From Candidatus Latescibacterota bacterium (GTDB lineage: Bacteria; Latescibacterota; UBA2968): a stretch of DNA of 64,000 nt. The notes under the pieces were generated by a model that searched no databases, had not been told where the DNA came from, and saw nothing but the letters and a program-made list of their open reading frames with translations. This document shows positions 30,766 through 58,312 of this stretch, one piece after another. The DNA lies in assembly GCA_965204745.1 (NCBI GenBank), contig OZ242010.1:4256001-4320000 (forward strand). The letters are read 5' to 3'. Position numbers and translations under genes: made by a program. Numbering within the stretch: position 1 is the first letter of the stretch; every line of letters starts with the position of its first letter.

Positions 30766-33700
30766 GGCGATTTCCCCCTGAGCCGGTCGATCATTTCGTA
30801 CATGGTGGGAATGATGAGCAGGGTCATCAAGGTGGAGGTGACCAAGCCGCCGATGACGGCGATGGCCATGGGCGCGCGCAATTTCGCGCCTTCGCCAAAG
30901 CCGAGGGCCATCGGCAACAGGGCGAGGATGGTGGTCGCGCTCGTCATCACGATGGGCCGAAGGCGATCCTGCCCGCCCTGCAACACGGCTTCCCGCAGGC
31001 CTAGGCCCTCGCGCCGGAGTTGGTTGATGCGATCCACGAGCACGATGGCGTCATTGACCGCGATGCCGCCGAGCATGATGATGCCGATGTAGGCCATCAC
31101 GCTGAGGGGTTCGCCCAAAAAATAGAAGGCGAAGACCACGCCCACGCCGGCCAAGGGCACGGAAAACATGACCGTGAACGGGTGGAGCACGGATTCAAAC
31201 AGGGAGGCCATGACCATGTACACGAGCGCGATAGAGAGGATCAGCGCGAATTTGAGGCTCGCAAAGGATTCCCTGCGCTCGCGCTCTTCCCCGCCGATGG
31301 CGATGCGATAGCCAGAGGGGATGGCCATGGTTTGGATCGCTGCGCGGATTTCTCCGATAGCCTCGCTCAACACGCGGCCCTCGGTCAAGTAGCCGGTGAC
31401 GCGGCCCACGCGCCGTTGGTTTTCCCGTAAAATTTCGCGCGGGCCTTCGATGATATTGAGGTCCGCGATATCGCCCAAGGTCAAGACCGCGCCCTCGGCG
31501 CCATCGATTCGGATGGTTTGCAGGGCGTTGAGGTCGATGTCGCGGTATTTGACGCGAATGTCGCGCGCGCGCTGGTCCTTGGACAATTCGCCTGCGACTT
31601 CGCCGGACAACTGCCGTTCCAAGGTGCGGCTGATGGTTTGCGTGGTCAGGCCAAAGGCGGACGCGACTTCGTCTCGGATAGCGAGATCGACTTCGGGTTG
31701 CCCGCCCTGAAAGCTGGTTCGCACATTGTACACCGCGGGCAGGGATTCCAGGCGCGCTTGGAGTTCTTTTGTGATGCGCGCCAAAATGTCGAGGTTTTCC
31801 CCAGACACCTCCACTTGAATGGGCGCGTCTCGTCCGGCCATGACGCCTTCGAGCGCGGTTTCGTGCAATTTGTACTTGACTTCGATATCGGGCAACGCGC
31901 TCAGTACGGGATCGAGATCGCGCACCAGTTCGCTCACATTGCGCGAGCGGTCCGAATGCAGCGCCACAGAGAGGGTTGCGCGGTTGGGGCCAGAGGGATC
32001 ATCCGCGCCGGAGATGCGCGCCGGGTCGAGGCCCACGCGTGCGTACACGTGCGAGATGTCGCGCCCGCCAATGGCTTCCACGATCTCTTTGGCGCGCAAG
32101 GCGAATCGGTCGCTCAGTTCCACGCGCGATCCCTCGGGCAAGGTGAGGTCGATTTGAAACAGCCCTTGGTCCTCGCGGGGGATAAATTCGGTTTGCACCG
32201 CGCGGGCGATGTACCCGGTCGCGCCGATCACCAGCGCGGCGACGCCGATCAGCGCGAGTTTGTGGTTCAACACGCCGTTGAGGAATCGGTAGTAAGCGCC
32301 CGAGCGCAGGGAGGTGTGACGCGCGGTTTTGATGCGGCGAAAAACGCGCGACGTCAGCATGGGGATGGTCGTCATGGCGACGACCAGGGATGACAGCAGG
32401 GAAAACGCGACGGTCCACGCCTGATCTTTGAAGAGTTCGCCGGCCAAGCCCTGCAAATAGACGATGGGCAAAAACACGGCCACGGTCGTCAGGGTGGAGG
32501 CCAAAATCGCCACGCCGACTTCGGTCGCGCCTCGGCTCGACGCGGTGCGTGCATCTTCCCCGGTTTCGAGGTGGCGATAGATGTTTTCGATGACCACGAT
32601 TGCATTGTCCACCAGCATGCCCGCGCCCAATGCCAAGCCGCCCAGGGTCATGATGTTCAGGGTCAGCCCCTCGAAGTACATGAGGGTAAAGGTCGCCAGC
32701 ACGGATATGGGAATCGCCAGGCCGATGACCAGGGTGACGGTCCAACTCCGCAGGGCGATCAGCAACACCAGAATCGCCAAGATCGCGCCGTGGATGGCCG
32801 AGGTTTCGACTTCGCCCACCGCTTCTTCCACGAATCGGGCTTGGTTTTCGACTGTGGTAAAGCGCAACCCGCCCAAGTCCGCCCGCATGTCGTCAATCGC
32901 GTCCAACACTTCGCGCACGACAGCGACCGTATTGCTGCCGGCCTCTTTGTAAATGGCGAGGCCCACGCACTCGCGGCCATCGAGGCGGGCGATGGTTTCG
33001 CGCTCTCGGTACACCAAATCGACCGTGCCCACATCGCGCACGCGCACCGGCACGCGGTCGCCGGACACCGCGCCGCCCGTGCCGCGCTTTTCGCCCACGA
33101 TGACCTCGCGCACGTCGTCGATGTCGTCCAAGCGGCCCAGGGCTTTGACCAGGTACGACTGCTGATTTTCTCGAAGCGTCCCCCCGGACACGTCTGCATT
33201 GGCTTGTCCGATGCGGTTGACGATGGCGTCGGGCGTGAGCCCAAAGGCTTCGAGCAAGTAGGGGTTGAGCAAAACGCGGACTTCTTTTTCCGCGCCGCCT
33301 TCCACTTCGGCAGAGGCCACGCCTTCGAGGGCTTCCAATTTGGGTTTGATCAGCAGATCGACCGTGCCCACGAGCGCGTCGAGTTCCGCGCCCTCTTCTG
33401 CGGTGATCGCGATTCGCATAACCGCGCGGGCGAGCGGGTCTTCGCGGTTCACGTTCACTTGCGACACGTCCTCATTTTGCGCGTATCGGCCCACCCTTTT
33501 TTGAATGTCGAGCAAGCCGAAATCCATGTCCGCATCCCACGCAAATTCCGCGACGACCACGCCTTGGCCCGAGCGCGTTATCGAATACACGCGCTTGACG
33601 CCCTGAATGGTGCTCACGTCTCGCTCGAGTCTGCGCGTGTAGCGTTCCTCGATTTCACGGGGGGATTTGCCCGGCGCGCTCAGGTCGATGGTGACCACGG

Positions 33701-33827
33701 GCGTTTGCAGATCCGGGAGCAGGTCCGTGCCCAGGCCATTGAGGGAAATCCAGCCGAGCAAGACCACTGCGAGCGTGCCCATGGCGATGGTGACCGGATA
33801 GCGCGTTGAAAATTCCGGCAGGTTCAT
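30762..33827 (-). CDS. AcrB-family RND permease
   Basis: GMLVDNAIVVIENI, GIAVNDAIVLVD, RLRPIVMT; 1021 aa. Confidence 0.95.
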   Translation of the reverse strand: MNLPEFSTRYPVTIAMGTLAVVLLGWISLNGLGTDLLPDLQTPVVTIDLSAPGKSPREIEERYTRRLERDVSTIQGVKRVYSITRSGQGVVVAEFAWDADMDFGLLDIQKRVGRYAQNEDVSQVNVNREDPLARAVMRIAITAEEGAELDALVGTVDLLIKPKLEALEGVASAEVEGGAEKEVRVLLNPYLLEAFGLTPDAIVNRIGQANADVSGGTLRENQQSYLVKALGRLDDIDDVREVIVGEKRGTGGAVSGDRVPVRVRDVGTVDLVYRERETIARLDGRECVGLAIYKEAGSNTVAVVREVLDAIDDMRADLGGLRFTTVENQARFVEEAVGEVETSAIHGAILAILVLLIALRSWTVTLVIGLAIPISVLATFTLMYFEGLTLNIMTLGGLALGAGMLVDNAIVVIENIYRHLETGEDARTASSRGATEVGVAILASTLTTVAVFLPIVYLQGLAGELFKDQAWTVAFSLLSSLVVAMTTIPMLTSRVFRRIKTARHTSLRSGAYYRFLNGVLNHKLALIGVAALVIGATGYIARAVQTEFIPREDQGLFQIDLTLPEGSRVELSDRFALRAKEIVEAIGGRDISHVYARVGLDPARISGADDPSGPNRATLSVALHSDRSRNVSELVRDLDPVLSALPDIEVKYKLHETALEGVMAGRDAPIQVEVSGENLDILARITKELQARLESLPAVYNVRTSFQGGQPEVDLAIRDEVASAFGLTTQTISRTLERQLSGEVAGELSKDQRARDIRVKYRDIDLNALQTIRIDGAEGAVLTLGDIADLNIIEGPREILRENQRRVGRVTGYLTEGRVLSEAIGEIRAAIQTMAIPSGYRIAIGGEERERRESFASLKFALILSIALVYMVMASLFESVLHPFTVMFSVPLAGVGVVFAFYFLGEPLSVMAYIGIIMLGGIAVNDAIVLVDRINQLRREGLGLREAVLQGGQDRLRPIVMTSATTILALLPMALGFGEGAKLRAPMAIAVIGGLVTSTLMTLLIIPTMYEMIDRLRGKSP

Positions 33828-34906: not shown

Positions 34907-35290
34907 GGTTGTATTGACATTTCATTTTTTTTGACGTTACGCACAGATTAGCAAATGTGTTGCTTGCTCATTTAAGGAGGACCTATCCCCCGGCCCCTTT
35001 CCTACGAGGAAAGGGGAGTAAAGGCCCTTTGATGGCTTCTCGCTATGGTTGCTCTGATGGCGTTGACCGAGGGCAGAAAGCGATTAAGGAGGACCTATCC
35101 CCCGGCCCCTTTCCTACGAGGAAAGGGGAGTAAAGGCCCTTTGATGGCTTCTCGCTATGGTTGCTCTGATGGCGTTGACCGAGGGCAGAAAGCGATTAAA
35201 AATTCCTCACATCTTCCCCTCGGAAAACCGATCCTCGTTCCCCCTTCCTCGCAGGAAGGGGGTTAGGGGGTAGGTCCCGATCTCGATAAG
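34907..35290. mobile_element. Third MITE copy, with an internal tandem duplication of ~110 bp
   Basis: GGTTGTATTGACATTT end next to (GTTGTCA)x2; the unit GGACCTATCCCCCGGCCCCTTTCCTACGAGGAAAGGGG...GCGATTAA occurs twice. Confidence 0.78.
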
Positions 35291-39935: not shown

Positions 39936-40284
39936 GTGGATTCCAGGCTGATTGTCCTCACACAAGCAACACGCAACGGCGTCGATAATACCGCGGAGGG
40001 TGCCGACAAGTGGTTGTCATTATCGACCTATCACACTACGGCATACGTACACATAGAGGAGGGATGAGATGCGACTTTTTTGTCCTACCGCATAACCAGG
40101 AAAGCTTAAACCTCTTTCCCTAGCCAGCAGTTCAATCTATCGCAGTTTTATCAGCAAATTGGGGCTGGAAACCCTATGCTAATTCACAACAGGAGATTAA
40201 GACCATGATTAAATTGGCACAACTGGCCTTGTTGGCCTTGGCAATGCTTGCGACCCTGTTTTCTGGGACTGGATTTGCTTTTGA
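39936..40284 (+). repeat. ~350-bp direct repeat, copy 1 (leader + RBS + signal-peptide codons)
   Basis: Matches 41443..41795 apart from a 4-bp GGCG indel. Confidence 0.95.
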
Positions 40285-41275
40285 AGGGAGGAAGTTACGA
40301 AAGGGAACCTCGGCTATGAAGCTCACGCGGTTGCTGATCTTCGGAACCGTTCTGCTGGTCATGTGCTTTGCTTATGCCTGTGGAAAGGACGATCCGAGCG
40401 GTAGCGGTAGCGGCGGTGGCAGTGGCGGTACGCCCAAGATGTACTGGACGGACGCACTCTGGACAGGAAGCCGATTTACTGATGGTAAGATTCAGCGTGC
40501 CAACTTGGATGGCTCCAATGTCGAAGACCTCATCACCACAGGATTGGGTAATCCAGTTGGCATCGCGCTGGATGTGGGACGCGGAAAGATGTACTGGACG
40601 GAAAGGCGCATGGAGAGGATTCAGCGTGCCAACTTGGATGGCTCCCAGGTTGAAGACCTCATCACCACAGGATTGCGTTTTCCATATGGCATCGCGCTGG
40701 ATGTGGGACGCGGAAAGATGTACTGGACGGAGTGGATCGCGGGTAAGATTCAGCGTGCCAACTTGGATGGCTCCAATGTCGAAGACCTCATCACCACAGG
40801 ATTGAGAGAGCCACTTGGCATCGCGCTGGATGTGGGACGCGGAAAGATGTACTGGACAAACAAGGACTTAGACGGTGACGGTCGCACGTCTAAGATTCAG
40901 CGTGCCAACTTGGATGGCTCCAATGTCGAAGACCTCATCACCACAGGATTGAATGCGCTAGCTAGCATCGCGCTGGATGTGGGACGCGGAAAGATGTACT
41001 GGACAAACACGGACTTAGACGGTGACGGTCGCACGTCTAAGATTCAGCGTGCCAACTTGGATGGCTCCAATGTCGAAGACCTCATCACCACAGGATTGGG
41101 GGGGCCAGAGGGCATCGCGCTGGATGTGGGACGCGGAAAGATGTACTGGAAAAACACGGACTCCGGCGGTCGCACGTCTAAGATTCAGCGTGCCAACTTG
41201 GATGGCTCCAATGTCGAAGACCTCATCACCACAGGATTGAGGCCACCTGTTGGCATCGCGCTGGATGTGCGGTAG
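40205..41275 (+). CDS. Six-bladed YWTD (LDLR class B-like) beta-propeller lipoprotein; native start probably ATG 40316
   Basis: Six repeats KMYW-x(n)-KIQRANLDGSNVEDLITTGL-x4-GIALDVGRG; lipoprotein signal MKLTRLLIFGTVLLVMCFAYAC from 40316. Confidence 0.92.
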   Translation: MIKLAQLALLALAMLATLFSGTGFAFEGRKLRKGTSAMKLTRLLIFGTVLLVMCFAYACGKDDPSGSGSGGGSGGTPKMYWTDALWTGSRFTDGKIQRANLDGSNVEDLITTGLGNPVGIALDVGRGKMYWTERRMERIQRANLDGSQVEDLITTGLRFPYGIALDVGRGKMYWTEWIAGKIQRANLDGSNVEDLITTGLREPLGIALDVGRGKMYWTNKDLDGDGRTSKIQRANLDGSNVEDLITTGLNALASIALDVGRGKMYWTNTDLDGDGRTSKIQRANLDGSNVEDLITTGLGGPEGIALDVGRGKMYWKNTDSGGRTSKIQRANLDGSNVEDLITTGLRPPVGIALDVR

Positions 41276-41448
41276 TGCCGTCAACGGTGGCGGCAGTGGT
41301 GGTGGAGGGGCCTGTTCGGTGGGGCAGGTGTTGAGTCCGGGGCAGAGTTGCACCGTCAATATTCCCAATATCAATGTCGGCAGTAATCGGTTCGTGGTCC
41401 GCTCCGATGGATCGGGGTGTTACGGCAATATCTGCGCGGGTAGTGGAT
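41270..41448 (+). pseudogene. Out-of-frame, truncated Cys-rich domain after the propeller
   Basis: An alternative frame reads GSAVNGGGSGGGGACSVGQVLSPGQSCTVNIPNINVGSNRFVVRSDGSGCYGNICAGSG and is cut off by repeat copy 2. Confidence 0.6.
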
Positions 41449-41795
41449 TCCAGGCTGATTGTCCTCACACAAGCAACACGCAACGGCGTCGATAATACCG
41501 CGGAGGGTGCCGACAAGTGGTTGTCATTATCGACCTATCACACTACGGCATACGTACACATAGAGGAGGGATGAGATGCGACTTTTTTGTCCTACCGCAT
41601 AACCAGGAAAGCTTAAACCTCTTTCCCTAGCCAGCAGTTCAATCTATCGCAGTTTTATCAGCAAATTGGGGCTGGAAACCCTATGCTAATTCACAGGCGA
41701 CAGGAGATTAAGACCATGATTAAATTGGCACAACTGGCCTTGTTGGCCTTGGCAATGCTTGCGACCCTGTTTTCTGGGACTGGATTTGCTTTTGA
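41443..41795 (+). repeat. ~350-bp direct repeat, copy 2
   Basis: Matches 39936..40284. Confidence 0.95.
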
Positions 41796-42276
41796 TGGAA
41801 ACAGGGCGGGATTTATTCTTGGAATTGGAGGCGGTGGCGGGTATGCCCGCGATAGGGATACTTTTTTTGATGTGTCTAAGTCAAGTTTCGCCGGGAAAAC
41901 AGATTTTCTCATTGGATATGCGCCGAGCAATCGGCTGGCAATAACTTGGTCAAACAAAGTTTCCTGGTATGATTGGAAGTGGCCTGACTACGACTATGAC
42001 GGATTCTTTGCTTCCAACGGTACGGCTGGACTTGGAATTACTTACTTTCTGTCCGAAGATATAAATGCGAATTTCGTTCAGGCAGTAGTTGGATACAATG
42101 TTGTTTTCGCACCATTTGATGATGTGGGCTCTTCTGGAGGATTTGGACTCGGTATTGGCGTTGGGCGCGAAGTCTCAAAGAATTGGATCATAGGTTTAGA
42201 CGCGACTTGGGGCAGACCTGAAGAAGACGTAACGACATTTGGTATCGGTGTATATTTTTCGCATATCTGGTACTGA
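41716..42276 (+). CDS. Small outer-membrane beta-barrel protein
   Basis: Signal peptide ending GFA-F; alternating Gly/aromatic strands; C-terminal FGIGVYFSHIWY; AT-richer than the core genes. Confidence 0.8.
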   Translation: MIKLAQLALLALAMLATLFSGTGFAFDGNRAGFILGIGGGGGYARDRDTFFDVSKSSFAGKTDFLIGYAPSNRLAITWSNKVSWYDWKWPDYDYDGFFASNGTAGLGITYFLSEDINANFVQAVVGYNVVFAPFDDVGSSGGFGLGIGVGREVSKNWIIGLDATWGRPEEDVTTFGIGVYFSHIWY

Positions 42277-42488
42277 TGCGAATAAAGGGTTAAACCCGTC
42301 GCGTCCTTCTCGGTGCTTGCAGTGTGTGGATGGTCGTGCGTCCCAACCAGAGTTGTCAGATCAGCATGGGTTGTCTTGCGTTGTTGTTGTGTGGCTCAGT
42401 GTTCGGGGGGCGTGGAGATCGCGCTTTTTGAAAAGGCTTCGGGCGACGCCTATTCTAAAGTCGCCCAAACTTTCACAAGGAGCGAGTG

Positions 42489-45400
42489 ATGCGTAAACTG
42501 ATTTTGTCAACGGGCTTGTGTATGACCGCGCTCACAGCGCTGGTCTTTGTGGTCTATCAAGTCGCAGCCGAACCGGATGCCCAAGGCGGCGCGGCCACAG
42601 GGGAATCTTCCCCGATTTCTGAACGGCGAGCGAAAGTTGCCGCTGGTGCCAATGCCAATGCGCGGCTGTCGCTCGATCTGATTCCCAATGGCGGCGCGGG
42701 CGATCAGAGAGATAATGAAGTCACATCGGGCACCGCGTCTGGACGAGATACGATTGCCATTGAGGTTTTTGCAACCGGCGTGACCACCTCTTTGATCGGC
42801 ATGCAACTTCAGTTTGCCTTTGATGCGACTCTGTTGACCTTTGTCAAAGCGGAGAACCGCGCGTTTGTCTTTAACGTGCCACAACCGACGGGCACGGACT
42901 TCGCGGCGTTTTCGCCGGTTCGTTTGGCGTCGTCGGGTTTTCTGGCACGGGCAGAGTTCACCACGGCGCCCGATGTTACGGGCCGGGAATTTTCCATTGG
43001 CCTTGGGTTGGTGACGCTTTCTGAAAGTTTGTCCTCGAGCGATACGCTCACCACGACAAGCCGGATCTCGTTTAACGTTCCGACGACTTCCACGCCCGAT
43101 TTTAATGGCAATGGGAAGGTGGACTTTCCCGATTTCTTGGCGTTTGTCGCGCAATATGGCGCCCGGCGCGGGGATAGCAGATACGAAGCGAAGTACGATT
43201 TGAATAGCGATGGCGCGATAGACTTTCAGGATTTTCTGACTTTTGCCAGCAGTTATGGTCAGTCAGTGCCCCCTTCTGGTGGCGGGAGTCGCAGTCCGGA
43301 TCTGGTCGTTGAAGCGCCGTCGGTCAGCAATAGCACGCTGACGCCCGGTCAATCCTTCACCCTGCAAGCCACCGTTCGCAACCGGGGCACGGGGCCATCA
43401 GCTGCGACGACCTTGCGTTATCATCAATCGTCCGACGCGACGATCACGACCAGCGATAGGTCTGTGGGCACGGACGCAGTCAGCGTGCTTTCGGCTTCGG
43501 GCACGGGTTTGGAATCGATCCCTCTGACCGCGCCTTTGACCCCGGGCACGTATTACTACGGCGCGTGTGTGGCAAGCGTCAGCAACGAGAAAGATACCAG
43601 CAACAACTGCTCGACCGGCGTGCGCGTGACGGTCGGTGGTGGCGGTGGTGGCGGTGGCGGGAGTCGCAGTCCGGATCTGATCGTTGAATCGCCGTCGGTC
43701 AGCGATAGCACGCTGACGCCTGGGCAATCCTTCACCCTGCAAGCCACCGTTCGCAACCGGGGCACGGGGCCATCAACCGCGACGACCTTGCGTTATCATC
43801 AATCGTCCGACGCGACGATCGCGACCAGCGATAGGTCTGTGGGCACGGACGCAGTCAGCGTGCTTTCGGCTTCGGGCACGGGTTTGGAATCGATCCTTCT
43901 GACCGCGCCTTTGAGTGCTGGCACGTATTACTACGGCGCGTGTGTGGCTGCGGTCAGCGGCGAGACCGATGTCAGCAACAACTGCTCGACCGGCATCCGA
44001 GTGGTCGTTGGCGCGCCAGACCTGGTTGTACAATCGCCATCGGTGGATAATACCACGCTGACGCCGGGGCAGTCGCTCACGCTAAGCGCGAAGGTTCACA
44101 ATCAAGGCATGGCTGAGGCGGCGGCGACGACCCTGCGCTATTATCGCTCAACCGACGCGACGATCACCACCGGCGACACAGAAGTCGGCACGGATAGTGT
44201 GAACCGCTTGGCGGCCCGCAACGGCCTTGATACCTCGGTTCGGCTGACCGCGCCAGCGGCCACGGGCACGTATTACTACGGCGCGTGTGTGGCTGCGGTC
44301 AGCGGTGAGAAAGATACCAGCAACAACTGCTCGACCGGCGTCCAAGTGATCGTTGGCGCGCCAGGCTTGCTCGTGCAATCGCTGACGGCGAGTAATACCA
44401 CGCCGACGCCGGGGCAGTCGATCACGCTTCGCGCGACGGTGGGTAATCGAGGCACGGCGGCGGCGACCGCGGCGACCCTGCGCTATTACCAATCGTCTGA
44501 CGCGACGATCACGACCGGCGACACAGAAGTCGGCACGGCGGATGTGATAAGCACCCTGGCGGTGGGAGCGACGAGTGTGCAGTCGAGCAGTGTGACGACG
44601 CCAGCGACCGCGGGCACGTATTACTACGGCGCGTGTGTGGTAGCGGTCAGGGGCTCGAGCGATAACTGCTCGGCCGGCGTCCGAGTGGTCGTTGGCGCGC
44701 CAGACCTGCTCGTGCAATCGCCATCGGTGGATAATACCACGCCGACGGCTGGGCAGTCGATCACGCTACGTGCGACGGTGCTCAACCGAGGCACGGCGAC
44801 GGCCGCGGCGACCACCCTGCGCTATTACCTCTCAGCCGACGCGACGATCACGACCGGCGACACAAAAGTTGGCACGGCGGATGCGATAAGCGCCTTGGCG
44901 GTGTCGGCGACGAGTGAGCAGTCGAGCAGCGTGCCCGTGTCAGCGATCCCCGGCACGTATTACTACGGCGCGTGTGTGGTTGCGGTCAGCAACGAGAAAG
45001 ATACCAGCAACAACTGCTCGGCCAGCGTCCGGGTGACCGTTGGCGCGCCAGACCTGGTCGTGCAATCGCCATCGGTGGATAAGACCACGGCGGCGACGGC
45101 GCAGTCGCTTACGCTAAGCGCGACAGTGCGTAATCAAGGCACGGGGGCGGCGACGACGACCACCCTGCGCTATTACCTTTCAGCCGACGCGACGATCACG
45201 ACCGACGACACGCCAGTCGGCACGGACGCAGTCAGCGCCCTGGCGGTGTCGGCGACGAGTGTGCAGTCGAGTAGCGTGCCCGTGGCAGCGATCCCCGGCA
45301 CGTATTACTACGGCGCGTGCGTGGATGCGGTCAGCGGCGAGAGCAACACCACCAACAACTGCTCGACCGGCGTCCGGGTGACCGTTGGTACTCCAGACCT

Positions 45401-48400
45401 GCTTGTGCAATCGGCATCGGTGGATAATACCACGCTGACGCCGGGGCAGGCGTTCACGCTTCGCGCGACGGTGCTCAACCGAGGCACGGCGGCGGCGGCG
45501 ACGACGACCCTGCGCTACTATCAATCGTCCGACGCGACGATCACGACCGGCGACACAGAAGTCGGCACGGCAGATGCGATAAGCGCCCTGGCGGTGTCGG
45601 CGACGAGTGAGCAGTCGAGTAGTGTGACCGCACCAGCGACCGCGGGCACGTATTACTACGGCGCGTGTGTGGCGAGCATCGGCGAGAGCAACACCGACAA
45701 CAACTGCTCGACCGGCGTCCAAGTGATCGTTGGCGCGCCAGGCTTGCTCGTGCAATCGGTGTCGGTGGACGATACCACGCCGACGCCGGGGCAGGCGATC
45801 ACGCTTCGCGCGACGGTGGGTAATCGAGGCACGGCGGCGGCGACAGCGGCGACCCTGCGCTACTACCAATCGTCTGACGCGACGATCACGACCGGCGACA
45901 CAGAAGTCGGCACGGCGGATGCGATAAGCGCGCTGGCGGTGTCGGCGACGAGTGAGCAGTCGAGTCGTGTGACTGCGCCTTTGACCGCGGGCACGTATTA
46001 CTACGGCGCGTGTGTGTTAGTCAGGGGCTTGAGCGATACGAACAACAACTGCTCGGCCGGTGTCCGAGTGGTCGTCGGCGCGCCAGACCTGCTCGTGCAA
46101 TCGCCTGCGGTGGATAATACCACGCCGACGACAGGGCAGGCGTTCACGCTAAGCGCGACGGTGTTCAACCGAGGCACGGCTGAGGTAGCGGCGGCGACCC
46201 TGCGCTATTACCGCTCAACCGACGCGACGATCACGACCGGCGACACAGAAGTCGGCACGTCGGATGCGATAAGCGTGCTGGCGGTGTCGGCGAAGAGTGT
46301 GCAGTCGAGTAGCGTGACTGCGCCTTCGACCACGGGCACGTATTACTACGGCGCGTGCGTGGATGCGGTCAGCGGCGAGAGCAACACCAACAACAACTGC
46401 TCGGCCGGCGTCCAAGTGACCGTTGGCGCGCCAGACCTGCTCGTGCAATCGCCTGCGGTGGATAAGACCACGGCGACGCCGGGGCAGGTGCTCACGCTCC
46501 GCGCGACGGTGCGTAATCAAGGCACGGCGACGGCGACAGCGACCACTCTGCGCTATTACCAATCGTCTGACGCGACGATCACCACCAGCGACACGCAAGT
46601 CGGCACGTCGGATGCGATCAGCGCGCTGGCGGCGTCGGCGACGAGTGAGCAGTCGAGTAGCGTGACCGCGCCAGCGGCAGTGGGCACGTATTACTTTGGC
46701 GCGTGTGTGGCAAGCGTCAGTGCCGAGAGTGCGACGAACAACAACTGCTCGGATGGCGTGCGCGTCATGGTCGTTGTTCCTGACCTGATCGTTGAATCGC
46801 CTTCGGTGGACGATACCACGCCGACGCCGGAGCAGTCGATCACGCTTCGCGCGACGGTGCGTAATCAAGGCACCGGGCAGGCCGCAACGACGACCCTTCG
46901 CTATTACCGCTCAACCAATGCGACGATCACGACCGGCGACACAGAAGTTGGCTCGGCGGATGCGATCAGCGCGCTGGCGGCGTCGGCGACGAGTGAGCAG
47001 TCGAGTAGCGTGACGGCGCCAACAACCGCGGGCACGTATTACTACGGCGCGTGTGTGGCAAGCGTCAGCGGCGAGACCGATGTCAGCAACAACTGCTCGG
47101 CCGGCGTCCAAGTGACCGTTGGTGCGCCAGACCTGCTTGTGCAATCGCCTTCGGTGGACGATACCACGCCGACGCCTGGGCAGTCGATCACGCTAAGCGC
47201 GACGGTGCGTAATCAAGGCACGGCCGAGGCCGCGGCGACGACCCTGCGCTATTACCAATCGTCTGACGCGACGATCACGACCGACGACACAGAAGTTGGC
47301 TCGTCGGATGCGATCAGCGCCCTGGCGGCGTCGGCGACGAGTGAGCAGTCGAGTAGCGTGACCGCACCAGCAACCGCGGGCATGTATTACTACGGCGCGT
47401 GTGTGGCAAGCGTCAGTGCCGAGACCGATGTCAGCAACAACTGCTCGGGCAGCGTCCAAGTGACCGTTGGCGCGCCAGACCTGGTTGTGCAATCGCCTTC
47501 GGTGGACGATACCACGCCGACGCCTGGGCAGTCGCTCACGCTAAGCGCGACGGTGCGTAATCAAGGCACGGCCGAGGCCGCGGCGACGACCCTGCGCTAT
47601 TATCAATCGTCTGACGCGACGATCACGACCGACGACACAGAAGTTGGCTCGTCGGATGCGATCAGCGCGCTGGCGGCGTCGGCGACGAGTGAGCAGTCGA
47701 GTAGCGTGACCGCACCAGCAACCGCGGGCACGTATTACTACGGCGCGTGTGTGGATGCGGTCAGCGGCGAGACCGATGTCAGCAACAACTGCTCGGCCGG
47801 CGTCCAAGTGACCGTTGGTGCGCCAGACCTGCTTGTGCAATCGCCTTCGGTGGACGATACCACGCCGACGCCTGGGCAGTCGATCACGCTAAGCGCGACG
47901 GTGCGTAATCAAGGCACGGCCGAGGCCGCGGCGACGACCCTGCGCTATTACCAATCGTCTGACGCGACGATCACGACCGACGACACAGAAGTTGGCTCGT
48001 CGGATGCGATCAGCGCCCTGGCGGCGTCGGCGACGAGTGAGCAGTCGAGTAGCGTGACCGCACCAGCAACCGCGGGCATGTATTACTACGGCGCGTGTGT
48101 GGCAAGCGTCAGTGCCGAGACCGATGTCAGCAACAACTGCTCGGGCAGCGTCCAAGTGACCGTTGGCGCGCCAGACCTGGTTGTGCAATCGCCTTCGGTG
48201 GACGATACCACGCCGACGCCTGGGCAGTCGCTCACGCTAAGCGCGACGGTGCGTAATCAAGGCACGGCCGAGGCCGCGGCGACGACCCTGCGCTATTATC
48301 AATCGTCTGACGCGACGATCACGACCGACGACACAGAAGTTGGCTCGTCGGATGCGATCAGCGCCCTGGCGGCGTCGGCGACGAGTGAGCAGTCGAGTAG

Positions 48401-50360
48401 CGTGACCGCGCCTTCAACCGCGGGCACGTATTACTACGGCGCGTGTGTGGTAGCAGTCAGCGGCGAGACCGATACGAACAACAACTGCTCGGCCGGCGTC
48501 CAAGTGACCGTTGGCGCGCCAGACCTGCTTGTGCAATCGCCTTCGGTGAATGATACCACGCCGACGCCTGGGCAGTCGATCACGCTAAGCGCGACGGTGC
48601 GTAATCAAGGCACGGCTGAAGCGGCGGCGACGACCCTGCGCTATTACCAATCGTCTGACGCGACGATCACGACCGGCGACACAGAAGTTGGCTCGTCGGA
48701 TGCGATAAGCGCGCTGGCGGCGTCGGCGACGAGTGAGCAGTCGAGTAGCGTGACCGCGCCAGCGACCGCGGGCACGTATTACTACGGCGCGTGTGTGGCA
48801 AGCGTCAGTGCCGAGACCGATGTCAGCAACAACTGCTCGGCCGGCGTCCAAGTGGTCGTTGGTGCGCCAGACCTGGTTGTGCAATTGCCTTGGGTGAGTA
48901 GTACCATACGGGCGACTGGGCAGGCGCTGACGCTAAGCGCGACGGTGCGTAATCAAGGCACGGCTGAGGCGGCGGCGACGACCCTGCGCTATTACCAATC
49001 GTCTGACGCGACGATCACCACTGGCGACACAGAAGTTGGCACGTCGGATGCGATAAGCGCACTGGCGGCTTCGGCGACGAGCGCGCAGTCAAGTAGCGTG
49101 ACCGCGCCAACGACCGCCGGCACATATTACTACGGCGCGTGTGTGGCAAGCGTCAGCGGCGAGAGTGCTACGAACAACAACTGCTCGGCTGGCGTACGCG
49201 TCACGGTCGTTGTTCCTGACCTGATCGTTGAATCGCCTTCGGTGAGTGATACCACGCGGGCGCCGGGGGAGTCGCTGACGCTAAGCGCGACGGTGCGTAA
49301 TCAAGGCACCGGGCGGGCCGCGGCGACGACCCTGCGCTATTACCAATCGTCTGACGCGACGATCACCACTGGCGACACAGAAGTTGGCTCGTCGGATGCG
49401 ATCAGAGCGCTGGCGGCGTCGGCGACGAATGCACAGTCGAGTAGCGTGACTGCTCCAGCGACCACCGGCACGTATTACTACGGCGCGTGTGTGGATGCGG
49501 TCAGCGGCGAGATCAACACCAACAACAACTGCTCGGGTGGCGTGCGCGTCACGGTGAAGCCGTCCAAGATGTACTGGGTGGGTGAGCACTGGACAAGAGG
49601 CCAATGGAGGCCTAAGATTCAGCGTGCCAACTTGGATGGCTCCAATGTCGAAGACCTCATCACCACAGGATTGAATTTGCCAAATGGCATCGCGCTGGAT
49701 GTGGGACGCGGAAAGATGTACTGGACGGTATATTGGTTCTCCCTTAACCAGGGTAAGATTCAGCGTGCCAACTTGGATGGCTCCAATGTCGAAGACCTCA
49801 TCACCGCAGGAGTGCATTCTACAGGTGGCATCGCGCTGGATGTGGGCCGCGGAAAGATGTACTGGACAAACCTGAGCGCGGGTAAGATTCAGCGTGCCAA
49901 CTTGGATGGCTCCAATGTCGAAGACCTCATCACCACAGGATTGGGGACGCCAGAAGGCATCGCGCTGGATGTGGGACGCGGAAAGATGTACTGGACGGAC
50001 TCTTACAAGCAAAAGATTCAGCGTGCCAACTTGGATGGCTCCAATGTCGAAGACCTCATCACCACAGGATTGACTGTGCCATTGGCCATCGCGCTGGATG
50101 TGGGACGCGGAAAGATGTACTGGACGGACTCTGACACGAATAAGATTCAGCGTGCCAACTTGGATGGCTCCAATGTCGAAGACCTCATCACCACAAAAGA
50201 CCCATTTTACATCGCGCTGGATGTGGGCCGCGGAAAGATGTACTGGACGGACACTGGCACGAATAAGATTCAGCGTGCCAACTTGGATGGCTCACTGATC
50301 GAAAATATCCAGCCCACAGGAACGTGGAATCCATATGGCATCGCGCTGGATTTGCGGTAG
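42489..50360 (+). CDS. Giant surface protein: signal/anchor, cohesin-like domain, dockerin-like EF-hand pair, 18 CARDB-like repeats, C-terminal six-bladed YWTD propeller
   Basis: DFNGNGKVDFPDFLAF and DLNSDGAIDFQDFLTF; 18 copies of PDL.V.SPSV..ATVRN.GT..TLRYY.S.D..GTYY(Y/F)GACV..NNCS; six KMYW..IALD repeats. Confidence 0.93.
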   Translation: MRKLILSTGLCMTALTALVFVVYQVAAEPDAQGGAATGESSPISERRAKVAAGANANARLSLDLIPNGGAGDQRDNEVTSGTASGRDTIAIEVFATGVTTSLIGMQLQFAFDATLLTFVKAENRAFVFNVPQPTGTDFAAFSPVRLASSGFLARAEFTTAPDVTGREFSIGLGLVTLSESLSSSDTLTTTSRISFNVPTTSTPDFNGNGKVDFPDFLAFVAQYGARRGDSRYEAKYDLNSDGAIDFQDFLTFASSYGQSVPPSGGGSRSPDLVVEAPSVSNSTLTPGQSFTLQATVRNRGTGPSAATTLRYHQSSDATITTSDRSVGTDAVSVLSASGTGLESIPLTAPLTPGTYYYGACVASVSNEKDTSNNCSTGVRVTVGGGGGGGGGSRSPDLIVESPSVSDSTLTPGQSFTLQATVRNRGTGPSTATTLRYHQSSDATIATSDRSVGTDAVSVLSASGTGLESILLTAPLSAGTYYYGACVAAVSGETDVSNNCSTGIRVVVGAPDLVVQSPSVDNTTLTPGQSLTLSAKVHNQGMAEAAATTLRYYRSTDATITTGDTEVGTDSVNRLAARNGLDTSVRLTAPAATGTYYYGACVAAVSGEKDTSNNCSTGVQVIVGAPGLLVQSLTASNTTPTPGQSITLRATVGNRGTAAATAATLRYYQSSDATITTGDTEVGTADVISTLAVGATSVQSSSVTTPATAGTYYYGACVVAVRGSSDNCSAGVRVVVGAPDLLVQSPSVDNTTPTAGQSITLRATVLNRGTATAAATTLRYYLSADATITTGDTKVGTADAISALAVSATSEQSSSVPVSAIPGTYYYGACVVAVSNEKDTSNNCSASVRVTVGAPDLVVQSPSVDKTTAATAQSLTLSATVRNQGTGAATTTTLRYYLSADATITTDDTPVGTDAVSALAVSATSVQSSSVPVAAIPGTYYYGACVDAVSGESNTTNNCSTGVRVTVGTPDLLVQSASVDNTTLTPGQAFTLRATVLNRGTAAAATTTLRYYQSSDATITTGDTEVGTADAISALAVSATSEQSSSVTAPATAGTYYYGACVASIGESNTDNNCSTGVQVIVGAPGLLVQSVSVDDTTPTPGQAITLRATVGNRGTAAATAATLRYYQSSDATITTGDTEVGTADAISALAVSATSEQSSRVTAPLTAGTYYYGACVLVRGLSDTNNNCSAGVRVVVGAPDLLVQSPAVDNTTPTTGQAFTLSATVFNRGTAEVAAATLRYYRSTDATITTGDTEVGTSDAISVLAVSAKSVQSSSVTAPSTTGTYYYGACVDAVSGESNTNNNCSAGVQVTVGAPDLLVQSPAVDKTTATPGQVLTLRATVRNQGTATATATTLRYYQSSDATITTSDTQVGTSDAISALAASATSEQSSSVTAPAAVGTYYFGACVASVSAESATNNNCSDGVRVMVVVPDLIVESPSVDDTTPTPEQSITLRATVRNQGTGQAATTTLRYYRSTNATITTGDTEVGSADAISALAASATSEQSSSVTAPTTAGTYYYGACVASVSGETDVSNNCSAGVQVTVGAPDLLVQSPSVDDTTPTPGQSITLSATVRNQGTAEAAATTLRYYQSSDATITTDDTEVGSSDAISALAASATSEQSSSVTAPATAGMYYYGACVASVSAETDVSNNCSGSVQVTVGAPDLVVQSPSVDDTTPTPGQSLTLSATVRNQGTAEAAATTLRYYQSSDATITTDDTEVGSSDAISALAASATSEQSSSVTAPATAGTYYYGACVDAVSGETDVSNNCSAGVQVTVGAPDLLVQSPSVDDTTPTPGQSITLSATVRNQGTAEAAATTLRYYQSSDATITTDDTEVGSSDAISALAASATSEQSSSVTAPATAGMYYYGACVASVSAETDVSNNCSGSVQVTVGAPDLVVQSPSVDDTTPTPGQSLTLSATVRNQGTAEAAATTLRYYQSSDATITTDDTEVGSSDAISALAASATSEQSSSVTAPSTAGTYYYGACVVAVSGETDTNNNCSAGVQVTVGAPDLLVQSPSVNDTTPTPGQSITLSATVRNQGTAEAAATTLRYYQSSDATITTGDTEVGSSDAISALAASATSEQSSSVTAPATAGTYYYGACVASVSAETDVSNNCSAGVQVVVGAPDLVVQLPWVSSTIRATGQALTLSATVRNQGTAEAAATTLRYYQSSDATITTGDTEVGTSDAISALAASATSAQSSSVTAPTTAGTYYYGACVASVSGESATNNNCSAGVRVTVVVPDLIVESPSVSDTTRAPGESLTLSATVRNQGTGRAAATTLRYYQSSDATITTGDTEVGSSDAIRALAASATNAQSSSVTAPATTGTYYYGACVDAVSGEINTNNNCSGGVRVTVKPSKMYWVGEHWTRGQWRPKIQRANLDGSNVEDLITTGLNLPNGIALDVGRGKMYWTVYWFSLNQGKIQRANLDGSNVEDLITAGVHSTGGIALDVGRGKMYWTNLSAGKIQRANLDGSNVEDLITTGLGTPEGIALDVGRGKMYWTDSYKQKIQRANLDGSNVEDLITTGLTVPLAIALDVGRGKMYWTDSDTNKIQRANLDGSNVEDLITTKDPFYIALDVGRGKMYWTDTGTNKIQRANLDGSLIENIQPTGTWNPYGIALDLR

Positions 50361-50775: not shown

Positions 50776-51765
50776 ATGGCAGAATACGATACGATTCCCA
50801 AGCAGTTGATGCACCTCTACCCGCAAGACCTCATCCGCTTGGCACTCGGACGCGAGGAGGTCGAAATTGAAGTTGAAGAAGTCCTCGACACCGAACTCCC
50901 CAAGGTGGAAACGCGCCTGGTCGATAGCCTTATTCGCGTGCGGATCGATGGCGAGGAAGCCTTGATCCACATCGAATTTCAAACCTCGGATAGCGCGAAT
51001 ATGGCTCGTCGCATGGCTTCCTATATCATTCGTCTCATCGAGCAGTATGACTTGCCGGTCTATTCCTTTGTCATCTATCTGCGTCCCAATGCCGGGCGGA
51101 GCGATAAGGGATTTTTCCGCCAAGATCATGCGGACTTCCCCGTGCTGGTGCGCTACAAGGTGATTCGGTTGAGCGAGCTGGACGGGCAGGGCATTCTTGA
51201 AGGCGACCAGGCCGGCTTGCTTCCTTTCGCGCCCTTGATGAAGCCGCCTGTGGGGATGGGTTCCGAAGATTGGTTGCGTGCGTGTGTTCGCAAGGGCGAT
51301 TCGGTTTCGTTGGATGAGGCAGACAAGGCGAATTATTTGGGTAGCTTGGCGGTCTTGAGTGGGTTGGCGTATGATCCTGCCACCATCAACCGAATTTTTT
51401 CCCAGGAGGGTTTTATGGACGCGATTATGCGTGAGTCATCGTTTGCCCAGTACCTCGAGGAGCGCGGCATTGAGCGCGGCATCGAGCAGGGAATCGAGCG
51501 CGGCATTGAGCAGGGAATCGAGCGCGGCATTGAGCAGGGAATCGAGCAGGGAATCGAGCAGGGAATCGAGCAGGGCGTTGAACGAGGCATTCGAGAGAGC
51601 ATCCGAGAAGCGTTGGCGATTCGCTTTGATGCAGGTGTGGCCGGTCAGTTCGCCGCTCGCATTGCGACCATCGACGATTTGCAACGGCTCAAGCAGTTGC
51701 TTCGCTCGGCGATGCAAGTGGATGATCTGGCGGCCTTTCAGCGCGTGTTGGATGCGGAAGCCTAA
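50776..51765 (+). CDS. Rpn/YhgA-like PD-(D/E)XK nuclease, copy 1
   Basis: [36 protein letters not shown]; (G-I-E-Q/R)n coiled coil; DUF4351-like C-terminus. Confidence 0.9.
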   Translation: MAEYDTIPKQLMHLYPQDLIRLALGREEVEIEVEEVLDTELPKVETRLVDSLIRVRIDGEEALIHIEFQTSDSANMARRMASYIIRLIEQYDLPVYSFVIYLRPNAGRSDKGFFRQDHADFPVLVRYKVIRLSELDGQGILEGDQAGLLPFAPLMKPPVGMGSEDWLRACVRKGDSVSLDEADKANYLGSLAVLSGLAYDPATINRIFSQEGFMDAIMRESSFAQYLEERGIERGIEQGIERGIEQGIERGIEQGIEQGIEQGIEQGVERGIRESIREALAIRFDAGVAGQFAARIATIDDLQRLKQLLRSAMQVDDLAAFQRVLDAEA

Positions 51766-51791
51766 CGCGATTCCCTGTCAGGAGGCGTCTC

Positions 51792-52865
51792 ATGGCAGAA
51801 TACGATACGATTCCCAAGCAGTTGATGCACCTCTACCCGCAAGACCTCATCCGCTTGGCACTCGGACGCGAGGATGTCGAAATTGAAGTTGAAGAAGTCC
51901 TCGACACCGAACTCCCCAAGGTGGAAACGCGCCTGGTCGATAGCCTCATGCGCGTGCGGATCGATGGCGAGGAAGCCTTGATCCACATCGAATTTCAAAC
52001 CTCGGATAGCGCGAATATGGCTCGTCGCATGGCTTCCTATATCATCCGCCTCATCGAGCAGTATGACTTGCCGGTCTATTCCTTTGTCATCTATCTGCGT
52101 CCCAATGCCGGGCGGAGCGATAAGGGATTTTTTCGCCAAGATCATGCGGACTTCCCCGTGCTGGTGCGCTACAAGGTGATTCGGTTGAGCGAGCTGGATG
52201 GGCGCGGCATTCTTGAAGGCGACCAGGCCGGCTTGCTTCCTTTCGCGCCGTTGATGAAGCCGCCTGTGGGGATGGGTTCCGAGGACTGGTTGCGTGCGTG
52301 TGTTCGCAAGGGCGATTCGGTTTCGTTGGATGAGGCAGACAAGGCGAATTATTTGGGTAGCTTGGCGGTCTTGAGTGGGTTGGCGTATGATCCTGCCACC
52401 ATCAACCGAATTTTTTCCCAGGAGGGTTTTATGGACGCGATTATGCGTGAGTCATCGTTTGCCCAGTACCTCGAGGAGCAGTTCAAGGAACAGTTTCTTG
52501 AGCAGGGCATTGAGCAGGGCATCGAGCGCGGCATTGAGCAGGGAATCGAGCAGGGCATCGAGCAGGGAATCGAGCAGGGCATCGAGCGCGGCATCGAGCA
52601 GGGAATCGAGCAGGGAATCGAGCAGGGAATCGAGCAGGGAATCGAGCAGGGAATCGAGCAGGGCATTGAGCGCGGGGGTAGAGAACATACCATTGCCGCT
52701 ATCCTCGACGTGTTGGAGATTCGCTTTGATGTGGTCGTTGCCGGTCAGTCCGCCGCTCGCATTGCGACCATCGACGATTTGCCGAGGCTCAAGCGGTTGC
52801 ATCGTGCAGCGGTGCAAGCGGATGATCTGGCGGCCTTTCAGCGCGTGTTGGATGCGGAAGCCTAA
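51792..52865 (+). CDS. Rpn/YhgA-like PD-(D/E)XK nuclease, copy 2 (divergent C-terminus)
   Basis: N-domain nearly identical to copy 1; C-terminus GGREHTIAAILDVLEIRFD. Confidence 0.9.
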   Translation: MAEYDTIPKQLMHLYPQDLIRLALGREDVEIEVEEVLDTELPKVETRLVDSLMRVRIDGEEALIHIEFQTSDSANMARRMASYIIRLIEQYDLPVYSFVIYLRPNAGRSDKGFFRQDHADFPVLVRYKVIRLSELDGRGILEGDQAGLLPFAPLMKPPVGMGSEDWLRACVRKGDSVSLDEADKANYLGSLAVLSGLAYDPATINRIFSQEGFMDAIMRESSFAQYLEEQFKEQFLEQGIEQGIERGIEQGIEQGIEQGIEQGIERGIEQGIEQGIEQGIEQGIEQGIEQGIERGGREHTIAAILDVLEIRFDVVVAGQSAARIATIDDLPRLKRLHRAAVQADDLAAFQRVLDAEA

Positions 52866-52891
52866 CGCGATTCCCTGTCAGGAGGCGTCTC

Positions 52892-53977
52892 ATGGCAGAA
52901 TACGATACGATTCCCAAGCAGTTGATGCACCTCTACCCGCAAGACCTCATCCGCTTGGCTCTCGGACGCGAGGATGTCGAAATTGAAGTTGAAGAAGTCC
53001 TCGATACCGAACTCCCCAAGGTGGAAACGCGCCTGGTCGATAGCCTTATTCGCGTGCGGATCGATGGCGAGGAAGCCTTGATCCACATCGAATTTCAAAC
53101 CTCGGATAGCGCGAATATGGCTCGTCGCATGGCTTCCTATATCATCCGTCTCATCGAGCAGTATGACTTGCCGGTCTATTCCTTTGTCATCTATCTGCGT
53201 CCCAATGCCGGGCGGAGCGATAAGGGATTTTTTCGCCAAGATCATGCGGACTTTCCCGTGCTGGTGCGCTACAAGGTGATTCGGTTGAGCGAGCTGGACG
53301 GGCGCGGCATTCTTGAAGGCGACCAGGCCGGCTTGCTTCCTTTCGCGCCGTTGATGAAGCCGCCTGTGGGGATGGATTCCGAAGATTGGTTGCGCGCGTG
53401 TGTTCGCAAGGGCGATGAGGTTTCGTTGGATGAGGCAGACAAGGCGAATTATTTGGGTAGCTTGGCGGTCTTGAGTGGGTTGGCTTATGATCCTGCCACC
53501 ATCAACCGAATTTTTTCCCAGGAGGGTTTTATGGACGCGATTATGCGTGAGTCATCGTTTGCCCAGTACCTCGAGGAGCAGTTCAAGGAACAGTTTCTTG
53601 AGCAGGGCATTGAGCAGGGAATCGAGCGCGGCATCGAGCAGGGAATCGAGCAGGGAATCGAGCAGGGAATCGAGCAGGGAATCGAGCAGGGAATCGAGCA
53701 GGGAATCGAGCAGGGAATCGAGCAGGGAATCGAGCAGGGAATCGAGCAGGGAATCGAGCAGGGCATTGAGCAGGGAATCGAGCAGGGCGTTGAACGAGGC
53801 ATCCAAGAGAGCATCCGAGAAGCGTTGGCGATTCGCTTTGATGCAGGTGTGGCCGGTCAGTTCGCCGCTCGCATTGCGACCATCGACGATTTGCAACGGC
53901 TCAAGCAGTTGCTTCGCTCGGCGATGCAAGCGGATGATCTGACAGCCTTTCAGCGCGTGTTGGATGCGGAGATCTGA
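52892..53977 (+). CDS. Rpn/YhgA-like PD-(D/E)XK nuclease, copy 3
   Basis: Nearly identical N-domain; longest 12-bp repeat tract. Confidence 0.9.
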
Positions 53978-58165: not shown

Positions 58166-58312
58166 ACTGACAACTGACAGTATTCAGTGGTCAGCCCCCA
58201 CCTGCCCCTACCGCCCAAGTAGTCAGTAGTCAGTCCCCGCCCGCTCTCCACCGCTATGTTCGTTAGAATTAGTCAACTGACAACTGACAACTGACAACTG
58301 ACAACTGACAAC
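58166..58312 (-). repeat. ~140-bp heptamer-bordered element, copy B (inverted relative to copy A)
   Basis: Reverse complement of 1228..1369; ends in an (ACTGACA)n tract next to IS copy 2. Confidence 0.85.

Follow-up and report, generated by a model that had tools for sequence, protein, structure and literature searches.

Constant DNA framework and hypervariable loops in a family of YWTD propellers from a Latescibacterota genome

In a 64,000-nucleotide (nt) stretch of a Candidatus Latescibacterota genome (assembly GCA_965204745.1, contig OZ242010.1, positions 4,256,001 to 4,320,000 of the forward strand; hereafter the window), two genes, A and B, each encode a six-bladed YWTD β-propeller in which nearly invariant DNA alternates with a few hypervariable codons. 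Both propellers belong to a family of 24 in the closed genome of 5,482,115 bp that contains the window. We consider that this family probably constitutes a germline repertoire of surface-displayed binding modules, whose framework has been homogenised by conversion or recombination and whose loops have been diversified by selection. As far as can be judged from sequence, what is new is the occurrence of a constant DNA framework with hypervariable loops on YWTD propellers in a bacterium, in proteins that are apparently extracellular; we found no paper on such an arrangement in the full-text literature, a search that did not cover subscription journals and supplements.

An earlier, sequence-only reading of the window had described six YWTD blades in each of the two genes, made of almost base-identical blocks and of segments that differ in every blade. 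The open reading frames and blades are where that reading had placed them, and all 24 of the loop strings that it quoted are correct. In the window, one blade consists of a 60-nt constant block (c1), a 12-nt variable segment (V2), a 39-nt constant block (c2) and a second variable segment of 18–36 nt (V1). The blocks are indeed nearly identical down to synonymous sites: c1 matches at 60/60 positions in 8 of the 12 blades, with the remaining four differing at 4, 2, 5 and 14 positions (the copy with 5 differences carries a 6-nt deletion), and c2 matches at 39/39 positions in 6 of the 10 full-length copies, with the others differing at 1, 1, 1 and 3 positions. In both genes, the stop codon cuts the last blade short. 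Synonymous choice is almost fixed in the 80 canonical 129-nt blades found genome-wide, as seen for Ile2 (ATT, 80/80), Glu13 (GAA, 78/78), Leu15 (CTC, 79/79), Gly19 (GGA, 75/75), a TTG codon (75/75) and Pro23 (CCA, 69/70). In the same blades, codons 21, 22, 24, 40, 41 and 43 are each occupied by 11–17 different residues, with an entropy of 2.5–3.6 bits; D, G, R, S, T, N, Y and W abound in the loops. The description of the intervening segments as variable therefore stands for these six codons, but neither segment is variable throughout, as V2 keeps the family-wide consensus x-x-P-x and V1 the consensus T-D-x-x-T-[D/N]. The propellers of genes A and B (P18 and P19) carry the most aberrant V1 loops among the 24; long insertions occur otherwise only in P08.

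A blastn search with both blocks, followed by one with an nhmmer profile built on the blade core, found 142 blades in 23 arrays, which form the 24 propellers at about 12 loci. Twenty-two propellers show six blades and two show five; P02 has five and P24 is a broken copy. They lie in 17 open frames, or about 15–17 genes (two pairs of frames overlap as if frame-broken, and one frame is a fragment of 208 amino acids [aa]), with one to five propellers per protein and a blade length of 43 residues. Most of the frames are long, and several start with N-termini that, judged by eye, resemble signal peptides. Ldl_recept_b matches in 11 further family genes range from 1e-30 to 1e-227. The modules that accompany the propellers are of the CARDB, Calx-beta, PPC, LapA-like or dockerin/EF-hand type; one gene has a Ser/Thr kinase instead. 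This kinase-propeller gene (genome 2540588–2542798, locus L115) encodes a kinase, a hydrophobic segment and coiled-coil-like ARQEE repeats (both recognised by eye) and a homogenised propeller, the putative outer domain, which begins at a different strand than those of genes A and B, so that its closure is a different circular permutation. P24 is the fragmentary propeller of a second kinase-propeller copy (5180254–5181921) and is separated from its kinase. Two other family genes look broken, one (4562463–4568137) being split by a 134-nt blade (4563951–4564084) with a 2-nt excess and the other (3279492–3286476) by overlapping frames; all three may be pseudogenes or reflect sequencing errors. Whole-blade aa identity averages 0.817 within and 0.786 between propellers, and 0.885 for the framework only; at the nt level, blade identity is 0.887 within and 0.864 between propellers. 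Regarding habitat, sponge-metagenome runs of two studies contain 23–46% of the words sampled from the window, no RNA run being among those listed, and the record titles of the nearest public relatives name Latescibacterota or Latescibacteria.

The sequence-only reading had proposed that divergence in the scaffold be compared with variability in the loops. Across 78 in-register blades, the proportions of differing synonymous (pS) and nonsynonymous (pN) sites are 0.102 and 0.061 for the framework and 0.302 and 0.588 for the six loop codons. Blades that are practically identical in their framework remain different in their loops: 20 blade pairs with 0–1 framework differences per 111 nt still differ on average at 6–9 of the 18 loop nt, the mean over all 2415 blade pairs being 9.3 of 18. 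Loop divergence is thus independent of framework divergence.

Two comparisons of whole genes gave a similar picture. Gene B and a paralogue (genome 3233188–3240804) are segmental duplicates, with 6782 nt aligned at 96.8%. Over 2132 codons of the N-terminal and CARDB regions, pS is 0.056 and pN is 0.017, and the framework of blades 3–6 has a pS of 0.068; the 15 aligned loop codons are 20% identical, with a pN of 0.498, and large insertions re-model the first two blades. The kinase-propeller gene could be aligned over its full length with a homologue of the same architecture from another species of the same genus (L016:603–2777). In this alignment, the kinase domain has a pS of 0.354, a pN of 0.040 and an aa identity of 91.6%, the propeller framework has values of 0.272, 0.067 and 85.5%, and the 36 loop codons have values of 0.508, 0.533 and 16.7%, respectively. 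At synonymous sites, the blades of the kinase-propeller gene are closer to the other propellers of this genome (pS 0.169) than to their counterpart in the homologue (pS 0.308).

The same framework is present in metagenome-assembled genomes labelled Latescibacterota, Poribacteria, Acidobacteriota, Gemmatimonadota, Chloroflexota/Dehalococcoidia, Planctomycetota and Gammaproteobacteria. Loci of the other lineages use synonymous codons of their own, with a framework pN of 0.11–0.2 and a pS of 0.46–1.0 relative to this genome; for the loci from Acidobacteriota, Bryobacterales and Poribacteria, the ranges are 0.11–0.18 and 0.46–0.78. Within a locus, framework pS is 0.058 in an acidobacteriotal locus (L014), 0.051 in one from Bryobacterales (L023), 0.026 in one from Poribacteria (L082), and 0.030 and 0.075 in two loci (L011 and L010) of G016, a genome of the same genus. 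Medians over the 63 of 79 loci that have at least three in-register blades are 0.43 for within-locus framework pS and 0.54 for loop pN. Combined with the lineage-specific codons, these medians indicate that the variable-loop design is family-wide. By contrast, framework identity at the DNA level is a lineage-specific state, extreme in this genome, and to judge from the sequences it bears the signature of concerted evolution. Between gene B and its best match in G016, the gene family alone aligns, at about 74%, with no wider synteny. Scanning metagenome contigs with gene A yielded 11 loci, the best at 54% identity, and no conspecific copy. Loci L102, L103, L104, L106 and L107 of same-genus genomes encode a separate YWTD propeller protein of 270–299 aa that ends in CCF and is kept in five species; it has no obvious signal peptide, and its blades are diverged and its loops conserved, in contrast to the homogenised hypervariable family.

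The propeller of gene A was modelled with AlphaFold2 as six four-stranded blades with 24 strands (predicted local distance difference test score, 90.2; predicted TM-score, 0.90). Foldseek searches against the Protein Data Bank returned LRP6 (3s2k_B; E 7.6e-21, query-normalised TM-score 0.82), LDLR (1ijq_A, 0.80) and nidogen (1npe_A, 0.80), and the top matches as a whole (LRP6, LRP4, ApoER2, megalin, LDLR and nidogen) have TM-scores of about 0.8 at 24–30% identity. These results bear out the proposal that the proteins are true six-bladed YWTD propellers of the LDLR/LRP6/nidogen kind. The strand order of the model reads KMYWT, V1, IQRAN, DGS loop, EDLI, V2, GIALDV and GRG loop. Because a DGS or GRG loop always comes between V1 and V2 along the β-meander of each blade, all twelve variable loops lie on one face, a placement read from this strand order and the one that the sequence-only reading had expected structural modelling to reveal. 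The ligands of animal receptors, as in the LRP6–DKK1, nidogen–laminin and LRP4–agrin complexes, bind the top face formed by these loops. In the A–D strand convention used for propellers (PMC3797127), V1 is the B–C loop and V2 the D–A loop. Together, these loops form the top face.

We propose that gene conversion or unequal recombination among the 129-bp repeats homogenises the framework across blades, genes and loci, for which identity blocks of about 50–70 nt would be long enough to serve homologous recombination. The dense mismatches in the loops, together with selection against a loss of diversity, would stop conversion from erasing them, and the five or six codons per blade in V1 and V2 would in this way be spared homogenisation and change faster than the remainder of the gene. 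New loop variants and V1 insertions would then be favoured by positive selection, and not just tolerated, because they change ligand specificity. The binding faces would be mounted on adhesin-like stalks (CARDB, Calx-beta and dockerin-like) and in one case on a transmembrane Ser/Thr kinase, a fusion suggesting that at least one copy acts as a sensor. In view of the habitat, polymorphic surface molecules of the sponge or of microbes are the most probable ligands.

Several observations weigh against this proposal. The low flank divergence of the duplicate pair could stem from recent conversion and does not provide a clean clock. Flank synteny is lacking for L016, whose flanks have no match of at least 200 nt in this genome, and at least five paralogues of the kinase occur here; for these two reasons we speak of a homologue and not of an ortholog. 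Inside the loop codons pN/pS is only about 1–2, near saturation, and recombination breaks the assumptions of selection site tests. Finally, framework pS between this genome and G016 (L010–L013) is 0.132, compared with within-genome values of 0.102 and 0.108 and with 0.323 for FtsH in the same pair. This likeness is not explained by simple within-genome conversion and suggests exchange between species or a constraint on the DNA itself.

It could be accommodated if the DNA-identical blocks were kept as crossover sites, with blades or loops being exchanged among the 24 propellers and perhaps among co-resident species, such that binding faces would exist as standing variation in one sponge. We think it unlikely that this is the case. 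If it were, the family would be a bacterial recombination-driven receptor repertoire for symbiont–host or symbiont–phage recognition, and the low framework divergence from G016 (pS 0.13 vs 0.32 for FtsH) and the flanking genes that resemble recombination-promoting nucleases (Rpn) would be part of the system.

The recurrence of loops bears on this question. The genome-wide catalogue of blocks and inserts, which the sequence-only reading had called for, contains 117 distinct sequences among 138 V1 segments and 117 among 137 V2 segments at the nt level. Identical pairs are far more frequent than chance predicts (V2, 23 observed vs 2.4 expected; V1, 40 vs 7.3), and none of 2000 shuffles reached the observed value for either loop, indicating that loops are copied. 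Among identical-V2 pairs, both neighbouring loops differ in 14 of 25 and both match in none; at the V1 codons beside identical V2 loops, identity of the hypervariable codons is 0.669 against a background of 0.541, with 7 of 46 identical. Shuffling of loops by recombination, as the sequence-only reading had suggested, is compatible with the data, in which identical loops recur well above chance and mostly beside different neighbours, but crossover within the constant blocks accounts for them no better than does copying of whole blades followed by rapid change of the loops. Some whole blades are nearly identical (P07.4/P07.5, 99.2%; P12.1/P12.2, 98.4%; P16.3/P16.5, 99.2%), and a blade with rare framework variants (KIQC...IVLDVV) is found at different positions in P07, P13 and P23; blade-sized exchange between genes therefore occurs. 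For 119 blades, the nearest relative is in another propeller at another position in 73 cases, at the same position in 13 and in the same propeller in 33, a result that fails to separate the models because the differences are dominated by loop codons. Short-read contigs from four public runs break at every repeat, their longest pieces on the window being about 50–110 nt, and the bins 40865–40895 and 41020–41050 are empty even in the best-covering run, possibly that of the source sample itself. Only one variant was listed, 40550 A>G in one contig of run X1, and a paralogue may be its origin; no variants or joints within a sample were otherwise seen in these contigs, which are too fragmented to have revealed them.

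A stronger version of shuffling, in which loops would be exchanged frequently in the population by an active, programmed process like that of lamprey variable lymphocyte receptors (VLRs) or cassette systems, possibly with the help of the Rpn-like genes, also seems unlikely to us. Identity blocks of about 50–70 nt flank every loop, identical loops are about 5–10 times more common than chance with the neighbours mostly changed, the five-bladed propeller and the two frame-broken genes speak for unstable arrays, and Rpn-like genes lie within 5 kb of 4 of the approximately 12 propeller loci. However, neighbours of identical V2 loops are only partly unlinked, and no dedicated enzyme was identified, as the Rpn-like match falls short of the cut-off for its family and one segmental duplication accounts for two of the four associations. 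Most propeller frames are long, and neither an incomplete expression locus nor a silent cassette bank was seen. Of the combinatorial, VLR-like repertoire once envisaged for these genes, what remains is a germline set of binding faces, about 24 in number and all different.

The targets of diversity-generating retroelements and the cassettes of antigenic variation (Borrelia vlsE) likewise alternate constant segments with short variable ones in a surface binding or antigenic protein. Unlike in those systems, none of the propellers has a reverse transcriptase or a template repeat next to it, the loops change in length and no silent cassette array was seen. Loop variation involves all bases as well as insertions and deletions and is not confined to adenine-templated positions. 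We rejected a diversity-generating retroelement as the source, the sole RVT_1 gene of the genome being of the distant retron Ec67 type. This only reverse transcriptase (genome 5010819–5011442; L009:1369–3105) is a retron Ec67-family reverse transcriptase/endonuclease fusion (708 bits) located about 169 kb from the nearest propeller; it is of an anti-phage type and unrelated to the propellers.

We regard it as distinctly improbable that the family arose by a recent burst of blade or domain amplification, with neutral, unconstrained loops and neither homogenisation nor selection for diversity. Such a burst would account for the near-duplicate blades just mentioned, which include their loops, for one acidobacteriotal locus where the loops are as alike as the framework (identity at hypervariable codons, 0.91), as expected just after amplification, and for the loop-codon pN/pS near 1 in the kinase-propeller comparison. 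However, the loops are saturated even between blades with 0–1 framework differences per 111 nt and show no scaling with the framework, and their pN of 0.50–0.59 exceeds the synonymous divergence of the framework (0.07–0.10), of the body of the duplicated gene (0.056) and of the kinase (0.354). Moreover, the kinase-linked propeller predates the split from its homologue and yet has the framework codons of this genome. One recent tandem amplification, which the sequence-only reading had named as the explanation of scaffold identity that would overturn its proposal, thus fails to explain the scaffold in the face of the decoupling of loops and framework, the duplicate pair, the kinase gene and the other lineages.

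An enzymatic role for the propellers, as six-bladed lactonases or streptogramin lyases whose loops would tune substrate access, is very improbable. Gene A has weak Pfam matches to Vgb_lyase (7.1e-12, 45.2 bits) and SGL (8.8e-05), and summed scores are stronger in multi-propeller proteins, but both gene A matches are below their cut-offs (50 and 26.3 bits), whereas Ldl_recept_b (PF00058) matches gene A in 6 stretches with 148.6 bits against a cut-off of 21 (6.3e-44) and gene B in 5 stretches with 130.2 bits (3.7e-38). The NCBIfam Vgb models reach 17 bits against a cut-off of 600, the top structural matches are all receptor propellers, and no invariant candidate catalytic residues stand out at the loop positions. 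An artefact of assembly or polishing that copied a consensus onto the repeats is barely credible: although repeats are hard to assemble and two genes are frame-broken, short-read contigs of three other studies (records 18, 26 and 10) contain the exact framework words, mismatch-free and at high depth, which rules out polishing, separately assembled related genomes share the architecture, and the unique loops could not have been created by polishing.

The repertoire that we favour has its closest known analogue, in mode of evolution, in the WD40 repeats with high internal conservation (HIC) of fungal NOD-like receptors (NLRs), of which the YWTD family is not a member, as it differs in repeat family, domain context, cell compartment and kingdom. 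In the excerpts of PMC1805685, PMC11761791 and PMC4986451 available to us, the NLR genes het-d, het-e and het-r of Podospora anserina (HNWD/NWD) are described as having repeats of about 42–43 residues with 80–100% identity, and the HNWD family as comprising about 10 loci, whose repeats evolve in concert both inside a locus and across loci. Four hypervariable codons in each repeat, located at the interaction surface, are under diversifying selection, and repeat reshuffling is proposed there as the origin of new specificities. Likewise, repeat identity is high in the YWTD family, although whole-blade values of 0.79–0.82 are slightly below the 85% criterion that PMC4986451 gives in the part consulted. 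Homogenisation extends within and between loci, with the exception that this genome and G016 are barely more divergent from each other than are blades within a genome, and a few hypervariable codons, 5–6 per blade with a pN/pS of 1–2, are on one face. Unlike the cytoplasmic WD40 repeats of fungi, the YWTD repeats are bacterial and apparently extracellular, as judged from the sequence, and their Pfam matches comprise CARDB, Calx-beta, dockerin/EF-hand, PPC and Pkinase but no NACHT/NB-ARC or death effector. Blade number is almost fixed at six here but variable in HNWD (10–11), and the fungal mutator RIP (repeat-induced point mutation) cannot apply to the bacterial family.

With animal LDLR, LRP4/5/6, ApoER2, megalin and nidogen, the family shares PF00058, the six-bladed fold and the YWTD motif that closes the strand before V1. 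Animal propellers are then followed by an EGF module, whereas Pfam found no EGF match in gene A, gene B and 11 paralogues; and animal propellers combine diverged blades with conserved loops, whereas here homogenised blades carry hypervariable loops. Tandem pfam00058 (LDL-receptor class B) repeats were noted in poribacterial single-cell genomes in 2014 (PMC3909097). According to the accessible text of PMC8163846, repeat proteins abound in sponge Latescibacterota, Poribacteria and Acidobacteriota, and lateral transfer is reported for sponge-enriched genes; enrichment of repeat proteins in sponge symbionts is also stated in a portion of PMC12993501. The portions available of PMC3909097 and PMC8163846 give domain counts and describe no DNA-constant framework, hypervariable loop codons or concerted evolution.

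How a sponge host recognises, tolerates or attaches its symbionts is an open question, for which eukaryote-like repeat proteins are the usual suspects, although work on them has mostly amounted to counting domains. The family supplies defined candidates, with a stable, well-folding framework of about 30 kDa and about 30 variable residues on one face. This genome has two dozen of them, one being tied to a transmembrane kinase, and there are hundreds in symbiont phyla. Should the variable face bind ligands of host or microbial origin, the family would be a natural binder library with specificities readable from sequence. It would carry HIC receptor evolution, known from fungal NLRs, over into bacteria and an extracellular fold, and it offers a clean case for how gene conversion and selection may divide a repeat into constant and variable parts.

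Table 1. Positions of the propeller genes, their parts and other features of the window.
Feature	Position	Strand	Remarks
Gene A	40205–41275	+	356-aa open reading frame; signal/lipoprotein-like N-terminus (by eye), Gly/Ser linker, one six-bladed YWTD propeller
Propeller of gene A (P18)	40436–41272	+	AlphaFold2 model; Foldseek match to LRP6
P18, closing strand and first V1 loop	40436–40486	+	precedes blade 1
P18, blades	40487–40615, 40616–40744, 40745–40891, 40892–41038, 41039–41179, 41180–41272	+	
c1, first copy	40487–40546	+	60 nt, encodes KIQRANLDGSNVEDLITTGL; recurs at the start of every blade of genes A and B
V2 of blade A1	40547–40558	+	x-x-P-x; D-to-A loop; hypervariable codons 21, 22, 24
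c2, first copy	40559–40597	+	39 nt, encodes GIALDVGRGKMYW
V1 of blade A1	40598–40615	+	family consensus T-D-x-x-T-D; hypervariable codons 40, 41, 43
197-aa gene	41683–42276	+	between genes A and B; no Pfam or NCBIfam match
Gene B	42486–50360	+	2624-aa open reading frame; signal peptide (by eye), dockerin/EF-hand-like segment, 18 CARDB repeats, C-terminal six-bladed YWTD propeller
CARDB repeat array of gene B	43278–49543	+	348-nt units; Tandem Repeats Finder: 16.2 copies, 86% matches, plus a 375-nt pair
Propeller of gene B (P19)	49566–50357	+	six blades
P19, blades	49614–49754, 49755–49883, 49884–50012, 50013–50141, 50142–50264, 50265–50357	+	49566–49613 precedes
Three tandem genes, weakly Rpn-like (recombination-promoting nuclease/putative transposase)	50776–53977	+	TIGR01784, 4.7e-07, 29.9 bits, below cut-off of 52.1
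Tandem duplication and microsatellites	34972–35199; 1228–1261; 2556–2635; 21186–21289; 58274–58312		

For gene A, an alternative start is possible at 40316 (MKLTRLL...). A 356-nt segment is duplicated at 98.6% (39936–40287 vs 41443–41798); it comprises the upstream region and the first 27 codons, encoding the signal peptide, of the 197-aa gene (41683) and has been placed before gene A, the long frame of which therefore opens with a borrowed signal peptide followed by its own. In gene B, Pfam also detected CARDB (1.7e-182, 18 stretches) and Dockerin_1 (3.7e-05). Within the CARDB array, a 696-nt two-repeat unit is tandemly duplicated at 99% (47064–48464, with a 605-nt exact run from 47064), showing that recent repeat duplication remodels the stalk of gene B too. 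Over the propellers, Tandem Repeats Finder reported arrays at 40487–40857, 40744–41269 and 49754–50351 with 85–91% matches. The base composition of the propellers (GC 0.53–0.55; GC at third codon positions 0.65–0.66; window GC 0.58) does not clearly point to a foreign origin.

The three Rpn-like genes downstream of gene B contain different expansions of a 12-nt repeat (EQGI/ERGI) at 51460–51581, 52500–52671 and 53600–53787. Such genes gave 29 tblastn matches in the genome, at about 21 loci in total. The segmental duplication of gene B includes the triplet, the paralogue's copy lying at genome positions 3229974–3232767.

Elsewhere in the window, a 1569-aa frame on the reverse strand (26056–30765) combines an AcrB-type resistance-nodulation-division (RND) transporter (ACR_tran) with a C-terminal ATP-binding cassette ATPase, which would be an unusual fusion if real, and adjoins a second RND pump gene (30762–33827). 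Tandem Repeats Finder also detected a 112-nt segment that is duplicated exactly in tandem, along with several 7- and 10-nt microsatellites that are perfect or nearly so (CAGTTGT, ACTGACT, CAACTGA and AATAAGACAA).

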